From Escherichia coli (GTDB lineage: Bacteria > Pseudomonadota > Gammaproteobacteria > Enterobacterales > Enterobacteriaceae): a stretch of 64,000 nucleotides of DNA. Below are positions 30,001-33,000 of this stretch, piece by piece. Made by a program: the position numbers. Within the stretch, counting starts at the first letter, position 1; each line of letters begins with the position of its first letter. The stretch lies in NCBI RefSeq assembly GCF_024298765.1, contig NZ_CP101210.1; one strand, given 5' to 3'.

Positions 30001-33000
30001 GGATACCCCAGATATGAGATATCTGAAGTGGTCTTTTTTGGCCTATGATACGGTCTTTGTTCCACGGTGACGTGTTCATACTCAAATCTCCTGCAATGTG
30101 GGAGATTTGAGTATGGTTGTCCTTATGAGCGAGGCGCGGAAGCTCACTTTAGGGCAATCTAATTCACATGTCAGAGGATTTATAAAAAGAGAATAGTGCA
30201 GATTTTAGGGATACTTACACTTGCTATGGCATACTTTTTGGGACCCCATCAGTTTAGGGATCTGAATCGCCACAGCTTTGGTAGGCACCTGCTTTATGGT
30301 CACGTGCACCCGAAGATCCTGCGGGTACGCATGGGTCACGAAAAGTACGAGTCTACAGAAGTTAATTTACGGTTTTTTGCGCTCGATGTGGCTGCCAGCT
30401 ACCAAGTCCAGTTTACACTGGATACAACTAACGCGCTGTAGCAACTGCGTGGTGGAAGCTGATTAAAGGAGATAATGATGTTCGATGTTGACGATACTGC
30501 ACCCGATACTCCCGCCCCCCGTGAACTCAGTCAGGATGTGCAGGCGCTGATCAACAATGGTCTGGATTTTCTGGATAAAGCCCGTGAAGAGTTGGAGGCC
30601 TCGAAGCCGAAGTTCTCCGTCGTCAGTTTCTGGACTGCGGTCGAGATTTTACTGAAAGTTCCGCTGGCGCACGAACACTGGTCGTTGGTCTGCAGCCCGA
30701 AAAAGCCAATAAAAAAGCAGGCTTACCTAGCCGGTGATTTTCAGTCGGTGACCTACGAAGAAACCCGTGAAAGGCTTAAGGACGTACTTGAAAGACCCCT
30801 AGACAGAGAAACGGACAGTGCTTTTGATAAGGTCAGAAAGCACCGCAACCGCGTAGTTCATTTCTACCACCCCACTTTCACCGAGGCTGAACAACGTCAA
30901 ATACTCAAAGAACAAGCTGACGCCTGGTTTGCCCTGAACCGGTTATTAAGGGATGAATGGAAAGTTATCTTCGGTGTCAAACATAATTGGAAGCTGGCTT
31001 TCGGTGAAACTCGTCTGATTAGGGGAAACAAATTTTATGCCGAGGTGCGGTTTAAACAGGTTAAGCCTGAACTCGAGCAGCTCTCTGAAAAGAATATTCA
31101 AATCGGTAACTGCAATGAGTGCCATCAGCATGCGACGGTAACAGGGACTGAAACGACCGGTAATGAAAACCGTAAGCTTGAAGTTACGCGGTGTAAGGTT
31201 TGCACCAGTGCTGTAAGGCAAATTACCCTAGTTTGTCCAGACTGCGAAATACCTCAATTGCTACCTGAGGGAGATAGTGATTTTGAATGCGAACACTGCG
31301 ACTACACTTCGGATAGGTATAAACTGCTGGATGAGGAGTTGTTCCACAGTGTGGATGAACAGCTACTCTCCGTATTTCCTGCTGGATGTACCAATTGCAT
31401 GACTCCTGAAAGCGTATGTAAATTTGGAGACGGCTATCTTTGCACTCAGTGTTTCATCTATTACACCGAGCTTCATGTATGTGGTTGTTGCGGTCACCTG
31501 AGCGATAGCGTTCCTGAACTGAGCCATATCCGAGGATGTGAATTTTGTGATGGTGACCAACGTTATTTTGATGACTGAATTACCATACATAATCTAGGCT
31601 CTTCAGGGATGGGTTGGACAGTCCGCTCCTGGCACAGAGCGGACTGTCAGATTAGATTCAGACCTGTACTCATTAGCTGATACAAATCAGCCACATATAC
31701 CTGCATTCCAAATAATTTCAGGCAGATATTATCTCCGTGAATCCCCCCGCCACCTTTCCGGTGCGCGGGGTTTTGTCTTTTTTCACCGGGAATACATGTA
31801 TGAATCCGTCTGATGCCATTGAGGCAATTGAAAAACCGCTCTCCTCCCTGCCTTACTCACTTTCCCGTCACATCCTGGAACATCTGCGCAAACTCACCAG
31901 CCACGAACCCGTGCCTGGCATTATGGGTAAAAGCGGGGCCGGTAAATCCTCACTCTGTAATGCACTGTTTCAGGGGGAGGTCACCCCGGTCAGTGCACTC
32001 ATGACAGCGCTTCCCGGACATGCCGCCATCCCTCTGATGACACGCCTGCAGGACGAACTGCGCACGGAGTCTGTCCGCACTCAGACCCGTGAACAGTTTA
32101 CCGGTGCGGTGGACCGGATATTTGACACGGCGGAGAGTGTCTGTGTTGCCTCTGTTGTCCGTACGGCCCTGCGCGCAGTTCGTGACACGGTGGTCTCTGT
32201 TGCCCGCGCGGTATGGAACTGGATTTTCTTCTGAACCCGGTGGTGATGTACCAGGCTGTTGTTACAGATTTTTAACTCCATGAAAACACTATGCAAACGC
32301 AGCTATACCCGGGGTGTCCCCTTGCGTTGTGCTTCCCAAGTTAATAGAATACATCGATCGTTACTATCATATCGATCGTTATAAACGATCGTTTGTAGTA
32401 AATGACCTCCTCCGTGGTTGTCATGAAAATGCGTCTCAGGAAGGTTAAATAATGCACGAAAAGAACATCGCCCTGCTTTGTGATGAAGCCGACCGACTTT
32501 TGCAACTGAACATTAATCTGCTCCGGCAAATGGTTGAGGAGCCAGATGTGTTATCTGACAGTAAGAACGAAAACAGACTGCTTTTTGATAAACAGAAAGC
32601 ACTGAAAAGAATTGAGGAGCTGGAGGGCGAACAAATCAAAACCGCCCGCAGGGAGATGGTGCTGGCTGTTGTCGGCACGATGAAAGCAGGCAAATCAACC
32701 ACCATCAACGCCATTGTGGGGCAGGAAATTCTGCCTAACCGTAACCGCCCCATGACCTCTGTACCGACGCTCATCCGCCACGTTCCCGGAAAAACTGAGC
32801 CGGTTCTCCATCTGGAACATATTCAGCCTGTCCGCAATTTATTAATCACACTGCAGGAAAAACTCGCCACCCCGGCAGGACAGCAGGTCGCACAGACCCT
32901 GCAGCAAACCGGGGATACCCGCGAACTGCTGGATATTCTGACGGATGATGGCTGGCTCAAAAATGAATACCACGGGGAGGAGGAAATCTTTACCGGACTG

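Follow-up and report, generated by a model that had tools for sequence, protein, structure and literature searches.

The 64,000-nucleotide stretch of Escherichia coli DNA analysed here (the window; contig NZ_CP101210.1 of assembly GCF_024298765.1) carries, at positions 32351-32393, an array of three GATC sites upstream of an operon encoding a dynamin-like GTPase, an RdcB-like protein and a patatin-like phospholipase. We hypothesize, with a probability of about 0.7, that this array is a heritable ON/OFF switch of the agn43 type, operated by Dam and OxyR, and that it controls the dynamin operon. In agn43 a single repressor site for OxyR is overlapped by three GATC, and their methylation by Dam blocks OxyR binding, which gives rise to heritable ON and OFF states (PMC2909390, PMC3764049, PMC4872104, PMC13337833). 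The original prediction, made from the sequence of the window, had regarded the array as an operator for a dimeric regulator encoded outside the operon. By homology, the array appears to be bound by proteins that control the operon downstream of it, and the candidate regulators, OxyR and Dam, are indeed encoded elsewhere, by core-genome genes. The binder, however, is likely to be a LysR-type tetramer on two 15-bp half-sites and not a dimer on each palindrome, and in place of a conventional operator the homology with agn43 predicts an epigenetic switch located around the start of transcription.

The array lies in the 217-bp spacer (32235-32451) between a yeeP-like GTPase open reading frame (ORF) and the dynamin operon. 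Its GATC sites start at 32356, 32374 and 32387, with spacings of 18 and 13 bp, and the array is found 59-99 bp upstream of the dynamin ORF start at 32452, in agreement with the three sites 13-18 bp apart and 60-100 bp upstream of the operon that had been described. Each GATC is embedded in CGATCGTT, which occurs in the window at these three places only. ATCGATCGTT is present at 32353-32362 and 32371-32380 and AACGATCGTT at 32384-32393, the order across 32351-32393 being TAGAATAC - ATCGATCGTT - ACTATCAT - ATCGATCGTT - ATA - AACGATCGTT - TG. The third site had rightly been recognized as a perfect 12-bp palindrome: GATC-III is the centre of AAACGATCGTTT (that is, AAACGATCGTT followed by T), at 32383-32394. 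No other GATC is found in the intergenic region, the nearest ones being at 30549 and 33013. A bare GATC triplet within 31 bp is not unusual for 64 kb (P ~0.57), but the whole window contains only 12 copies of CGATCG, and the probability of finding three of them within 31 bp is ~1.5e-4; this value, together with the restriction of CGATCGTT to the three sites, indicates that the cluster is non-random. Tandem Repeats Finder returned nothing on the array, the period limit of the tool being too short.

When the window was aligned with E. coli K-12, the segment corresponded to the yeeP-isrC-flu regulatory region, flu being agn43. The GTPase genes can be aligned at their 3' ends as far as the stop codon; after a stretch in which the spacers differ, similarity resumes over ~60 bp, in which the -35 TTG, TAATAGAAT and three CGATC blocks are conserved between the window and K-12. 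The elements of the segment are the following:

31737..32234, + strand: truncated yeeP-like GTPase ORF, with weak GTPase Pfam matches, whose 3' end aligns to K-12 yeeP through the stop codon
32322..32327, + strand: predicted -35 hexamer, TTGCGT, 17 bp before the -10, assigned by homology
32345..32350, + strand: predicted -10 hexamer, TAGAAT, which is part of the invariant TAATAGAAT, assigned by homology
32353..32389, + strand: predicted OxyR tetramer site, formed by half-site 1 (ATCGATCGTTACTAT, 32353-32367), the spacer CATATCG and half-site 2 (ATCGTTATAAACGAT, 32375-32389)
32356..32359: GATC-I, Dam target; analogy with K-12 makes its G the predicted transcription start
32374..32377: GATC-II, Dam target, partly in the spacer and partly in half-site 2
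32387..32390: GATC-III, Dam target, located where half-site 2 ends on its 3' side
32409..32451, + strand: dynamin-proximal leader, near-identical to the end of the O157 cah-dynamin spacer, with partial matches from position 7288 of the O157:H7 locus L003

The OxyR site was predicted by scoring the consensus ATAGnTnnnAnCTAT-N7-ATAGnTnnnAnCTAT, derived from PMC2909390, on both strands of the window. The segment 32353-32389 matches at 16 of 20 positions (8 + 8), the best result among 127,928 positions, and the K-12 flu region matches at 14/20 in the same register. Since functional half-sites of opvAB share 7-10 of 10 positions with the consensus, a half-site score of 8 + 8 falls within the working range. 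All three GATC are contained in this single predicted site, made up of two half-sites with a 7-bp separation. The dynamin-type copies all display the 18/13-bp GATC spacing, and the 7-bp separation between half-sites is nevertheless kept.

Regarding the promoter, the -35 TTG is invariant across the aligned dynamin-, cah- and flu-type regions, and TAGAAT is kept in every type aligned. In K-12, the annotated start of isrC, the agn43 leader, is the G of GATC-I, 6 nt past the same -10 hexamer, and on this basis a transcription start near 32356 and a 96-nt leader are predicted for the window. By analogy with agn43, the array would lie at or just after this start, downstream of the -10, and the predicted OxyR site would span about -3 to +34, which is a repressor position. 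At the end of the leader, a good Shine-Dalgarno sequence (AGGAAGG, 32438-32444) precedes the dynamin ATG. Rfam at its gathering threshold gave no match near 32350-32450, including none to the IsrC/agn43 leader RNA, and in the alignment of the window with K-12 the agn43 leader (isrC, ~220 nt) is absent.

We propose that a sigma-70 promoter, TTGCGT-17-TAGAAT, would fire at about 32356, and that a single OxyR tetramer site at 32353-32389 would cover the start point and hold the three Dam targets. With unmethylated GATC sites OxyR would bind, block transcription and shield the sites from Dam, resulting in a heritable OFF state. If Dam is the first to methylate the GATC sites after replication, OxyR would be excluded and the promoter would run, resulting in a heritable ON state. 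The output would be the dynamin-like GTPase/RdcB-like/patatin operon, probably of five genes, in place of the Ag43 adhesin.

The likeness to agn43 (flu) of K-12 and to Ag43/Cah alleles comprises the yeeP-like GTPase gene upstream, the -35 TTG, TAATAGAAT, the three GATC within one predicted OxyR site at the predicted start, the second spacing of 13 bp and a CP4-44-like island synteny. In contrast, the surface adhesin is replaced as downstream cargo by the dynamin-like GTPase/RdcB-like/patatin operon, the first spacing is 18 bp and not 19 bp, the predicted leader is of 96 nt, the last 43 nt being from the cah-dynamin spacer, and not of ~220 nt, and the match to the OxyR consensus is 16/20, against 14/20 in K-12 flu. 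By analogy with opvAB, this better match predicts a stronger OFF bias. Because the downstream gene encodes a dynamin-family GTPase, the locus is placed with the agn43-type switches by homology of its cis-element and not as an agn43 allele; in the genome paper on enteroaggregative E. coli (EAEC) 042, a similar inference from three GATC was drawn only for agn43 alleles. The gtr and opvAB systems of Salmonella also rely on OxyR and Dam, have their GATC placed inside half-sites for OxyR and give rise to ON and OFF lineages that are heritable. They have, however, four GATC in two pairs and 3-4 half-sites upstream of the -35, with OxyR as activator and repressor, whereas three GATC and two half-sites over the predicted start, as in the window, correspond to a repressor-only architecture. 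In fact, only one N7 half-site pair was found here, with no further half-site at helical register. Likewise, the pap-type arrangement of two GATC boxes ~102 bp apart in Lrp sites, which works with a PapI-like co-regulator (PMC2909390), is not present, the intergenic region being devoid of other GATC.

The fusion represented by the 217-bp spacer is found in 1983 of 5426 complete E. coli genomes (~37%), with 93-99.5% identity and in up to three copies per genome, and in the 42 metagenomic contigs fetched by a dynamin-leader anchor the switch is directly upstream of dynamin in every case (42/42). A search of the plasmid collection produced only a few matches, which are probably chromosomal. Conservation upstream of homologous operons, on which the original prediction had hinged, is thus observed within E. 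coli, although some strains have the switch before cah/agn43 and the dynamin gene downstream of the adhesin. The left neighbour of every switch copy examined is the 3' end of the GTPase gene, and a full-length GTPase gene occupies the same position in O157, O121, C311, E62, CB6886 and Citrobacter.

In order to assess which positions of the element are conserved, 47 pooled copies, representing 25 haplotypes, were compared. All three GATC are kept in 46 copies and all three CGATCG in 36, and the variable columns are distributed as follows:

GATC: 1 of 12
C/G flanks of the GATC: 3 of 6
-10 hexamer: 0 of 6
-35 hexamer: 0 of 6
OxyR consensus positions: 2 of 20

Variation affects 2 of 36 functional columns and 42 of 152 others, the anchor being excluded (Fisher p = 0.004, in a column-wise test that ignores haplotype relatedness and in which the columns are not fully independent). 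Since GATC is retained in more copies than CGATCG and the flanks vary more, selection seems to act on the Dam target and not on the palindrome, and the CGATCG palindrome that had been proposed as the unit gives way to GATC as the conserved unit. A reading specific to the PvuI site (CGATCG) or to the palindrome was rejected on account of the variable flanks of the hexamer. Natural variants illustrate how the element may be altered. In isolate AF39 (NZ_OZ547136.1, locus L013, 4385-4583) exactly one 18-bp unit is lost and the -10 reads TAGAGT. This loss is consistent with recombination between ATCGATCGTTA direct repeats at GATC-I and GATC-II, and it left two GATC and a single OxyR half-site, for which reason the copy is probably locked. 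The sole copy of the 47 with a destroyed GATC comes from a metagenome (QZLM01002248.1, locus L054), where GATC-III reads AACTATCG. Several other copies alter only the C/G flanks, with TGATCG at site II or CGATCA at site I or III.

Published expression data from E. coli MP1 bear on this switch. In an RNA-seq study (BMC Genomics 2026), the five genes from dynamin onward were those that differ most between two isogenic lineages, regardless of the medium; the difference does not follow the lytic-lysogenic decision, and the regulation of such dynamins was stated to be undescribed (PMC12922286). For agn43, clonal phase differences have been documented as a pitfall (PMC3764049). We located the MP1 cluster in NZ_CP139039.1, where SID94_19700-19720 encode the dynamin, the RdcB-like protein, the patatin and two hypothetical proteins, and the upstream GTPase gene, SID94_19725 (SID94_RS19725), lies outside the numbered cluster. 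The 217-bp spacer of MP1, at 4067355-4067571 and exactly at the boundary of the cluster, harbors an intact switch, with TTGCGT-17-TAGAAT and three GATC at 18/13. A large, medium-independent difference between lineages that starts at the switch is the pattern expected of a phase-variable locus, and we consider it circumstantial evidence. The promoter of another MP1 locus, hyxRAB, is one that we take to be an invertible phase-variable element. This locus, located in PAI-X, is also strongly up in lysogens regardless of the medium (PMC12922286). With two putatively phase-variable loci at the top of one list, clonal phase differences become a stronger suspicion.

Several points weigh against an active switch in the window. 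At this locus we infer by homology where transcription would start, that OxyR would bind, that methylation would differ between cells and that the operon would switch. The Cah/E62-type relatives reach only 12-13/20 in the comparison with the OxyR consensus, which makes consensus scoring an imperfect predictor. The distance from GATC-I to GATC-II is 18 bp here, against 19 bp in all the copies of Ag43/Cah and Citrobacter type that were seen, and the dynamin-type switch lacks the agn43 leader. Since the metagenomic copy L054 is without one GATC and AF39 without an 18-bp unit, the switch appears dispensable in some strains. Furthermore, the MP1 difference was read by its authors as a prophage effect, with two colonies per strain (PMC12922286), and true prophage-dependent regulation could account for it.

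Taking these points into account, the array might be the relic of an agn43/cah switch that persisted after loss of the adhesin, the operon being constitutive, silent or otherwise controlled. The arrangement as a fusion of switch and dynamin leader would suit such a relic, as would the existence of copies that have lost a GATC or a stretch of 18 bp and a core identity among dynamin-type copies that is no higher than the identity of the flanks. We nonetheless deem it unlikely, because over a long divergence (~80% identity to the Ag43/Cah core) the -35, the -10 and the three GATC were kept and the OxyR match is better, substitutions avoid the functional columns with the p value given above, and the boundary of the expression difference in MP1 coincides with the switch. 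A rather improbable proposal is that another regulator operates the array, either a dimer bound to the CGATCG/AACGATCGTT palindromes or HdfR, Lrp, Fur or SeqA in place of OxyR. The sites are palindromic and repeated, enterobacteria possess further Dam-sensitive regulators, and OxyR is a predicted binder at this position; but the C/G flanks, which complete the hexamer, vary at 3/6 columns against 1/12 for GATC, the array is directly homologous to the region of agn43 to which OxyR binds, the site is the best OxyR consensus match of the window, and no pap-like pair of GATC 102 bp apart is present.

We regard as very improbable that the array owes its conservation to an intrinsic terminator or attenuator, in which an 8-bp stem between GATC-II and GATC-III (32373-32391), followed by TTTGTAGT, would stop transcription coming from the GTPase gene or act as an attenuator in the leader. 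This hairpin was flagged by a terminator scan and forms when the predicted leader is folded at minimum free energy (z = -2.1), yet any two copies of CGATCG pair by construction, so that the stem is a by-product. Moreover, the T-run is weak and the equivalent in K-12 flu has none, the upstream GTPase gene is truncated in the window, and the conservation of GATC-I, of the -10 and of the OxyR half-site positions would be left unexplained. As for a chance cluster of GATC without function, the frequency of bare GATC triplets would allow it, but it is effectively refuted by the low probability of the CGATCG cluster, by the uniqueness of CGATCGTT and by an element that is homologous to a characterised switch and conserved in thousands of genomes.

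The agn43-type switch of the dynamin operon may be compared with the arrangement in O157:H7 TR01, where the order is GTPase gene, switch, cah (encoding an Ag43 homologue), a 110-bp spacer and dynamin. Of the 5426 complete E. coli genomes, 635 show this cah-to-dynamin arrangement. The window lacks the adhesin gene and has the switch joined to the dynamin leader, therefore the switch would act directly on the dynamin operon. The O157:H7 O-island has its island module, its dynamin operon and the last 43 bp of the leader in common with the window, but differs in the adhesin gene placed between switch and dynamin and in a switch core only ~80% identical. The junction between the switch-derived segment and the dynamin leader is found between 32408 and 32409: the sequence through AATGACCT continues the cah upstream region up to this point, and the 43 bp that remain up to the ATG match the end of the O157 cah-dynamin spacer almost completely. 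Given the ~80% identity of the dynamin-type core to Ag43/Cah-type cores and a first spacing of 18 and not 19 bp, the dynamin-type switch seems to be an old separate lineage. A simple recent deletion from an O157-like ancestor was considered and rejected, since near-identity to the O157 spacer is confined to the 3' part and does not extend to the switch core. In O157:H7 TR01 no promoter- or terminator-like site was found in the 110-bp cah-dynamin spacer (7222-7331 of locus L003), and consequently cah and the dynamin operon may form, in strains that carry cah, a single phase-variable transcript read through from the switch.

The genes of the putatively controlled operon, all on the + strand, are listed below:

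32452..34848: dynamin-family GTPase of 798 aa, first gene of the operon, a CrfC/YjdA (RdcA) paralogue (Pfam Dynamin_N)
34845..35750: YjcZ/RdcB-like protein (Pfam PF13990, 5.5e-71; RefSeq name 'RdcB family')
35747..36817: patatin-like phospholipase (Pfam PF01734)
36907-37413 and 37460-38098: two small ORFs from the ORF calls, with no assigned function, the first with a signal-peptide-like N-terminus

The dynamin scores 567 bits against NCBIfam CrfC, below the equivalog cutoff of 1146, and is accordingly a paralogue and not an equivalog. In a homology search with this protein, the best 120 matches comprised only E. coli relatives, with at least 92% identity. The first two genes are paralogues of the core pair RdcA (YjdA/CrfC)-RdcB (YjcZ), an activator of the diguanylate cyclase DgcE and a member of the FlhDC regulon (PMC6510439). 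The similarity is limited to ~30% amino-acid identity (PMC12922286), and the pair described here differs in being island-borne, linked to a patatin gene and predicted to be phase-variable. The two small ORFs (36907..38098) are probably the fourth and fifth genes of the unit, since the MP1 cluster SID94_19700-19720 contains the dynamin, RdcB and patatin genes followed by two hypothetical ones. A terminator-like hairpin with a T-run is found at 36837-36853, directly after the patatin gene, yet the small genes of MP1 co-vary with the first three, which renders the extent of the transcription unit uncertain. PADLOC identified no significant known defence system, the matches to LeoBC (1.6e-4) and to a phospholipase effector (1.6e-4) being both weak.

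Outside E. coli, an exact-pattern scan of 100,044 species genomes, with one genome per species, matched three loci, two of Citrobacter and one on a probably contaminated contig of a metagenome-assembled genome, which are too few for statistics. In Citrobacter braakii (locus L007, 4551-5325) and C. amalonaticus (locus L009, 750-1337) the GTPase gene is followed by a switch with 19/13 spacing and an OxyR match of 14/20. The cargo is in this case an ORF of 154 aa with a signal peptide and no Pfam family, assigned to PHROG 5248 (function unknown), and it represents a third kind of cargo. The ORF is followed by a homologue of the probable fourth gene of the window's operon (43% identity). A synthetic construct carrying the agn43 region has been reported to make a heterologous gene switch (PMC4872104). 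The cis-element is modular and its cargo exchangeable. More tentatively, and with considerable doubt, we may hypothesize a portable epigenetic bet-hedging cassette that recombination would set before unrelated cargo: the Ag43/Cah adhesins, the small secreted protein of Citrobacter and, in the window, a cytoplasmic or membrane-acting dynamin/RdcB-like/patatin module with a possibly costly role in phage defence, membrane remodelling or cyclic di-GMP (c-di-GMP) signalling, which the majority of cells would keep OFF and only a minority would have heritably ON. Among these roles, the reading of the operon as a defence system is speculative. If such a cassette exists, it would constitute a Dam/OxyR phase-variable system with a non-surface cargo.

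Concerning the surroundings, the window is an E. coli genomic island and the segment is near-identical to a region of Nissle 1917. A tRNA-Asp at 48618-48694, consistent with aspV, is followed by an rrn operon (56843-62073, with 5S, 23S, tRNA-Ala, tRNA-Ile and 16S) with a second tRNA-Asp; these genes mark where the island ends on the right, which agrees with the name PAI-CFT073-aspV used in PMC12922286. On the - strand, an ORF of 1610 aa (2796-7628) comprises three near-identical direct repeats 1005 bp apart (300-nt copies at 4823, 5828 and 6833, with 97-100% identity) and probably encodes a large repeat-containing surface or secreted island protein. ARAGORN called a tRNA-Gly(gcc) at 27824-27898, also on the - strand, inside the ORF 27585-28394. 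Rfam gave no tRNA match there at the gathering threshold, and the call is probably false or corresponds to a tRNA fragment.

In the literature we found no description of an agn43-type switch joined to a dynamin operon; the mechanism itself is already known, and what is new is the cargo and its prevalence. The known cases of Dam/OxyR control that we found (agn43, gtr and opvAB) all regulate surface structures, and a GTPase/phospholipase cargo would widen this range, with the switch acting as a modular cassette with exchangeable cargo. For MP1, the two lineages may simply differ in the heritable phase state of the dynamin cluster described as 'prophage-induced' and of the PAI-X locus that co-varies with it. 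The proposed switch provides a testable regulatory mechanism for an operon that roughly one in three E. coli carry, among them Nissle 1917, ST95, ST131 and O157 relatives, and, if it is correct, about a third of E. coli strains would toggle a dynamin operon heritably.

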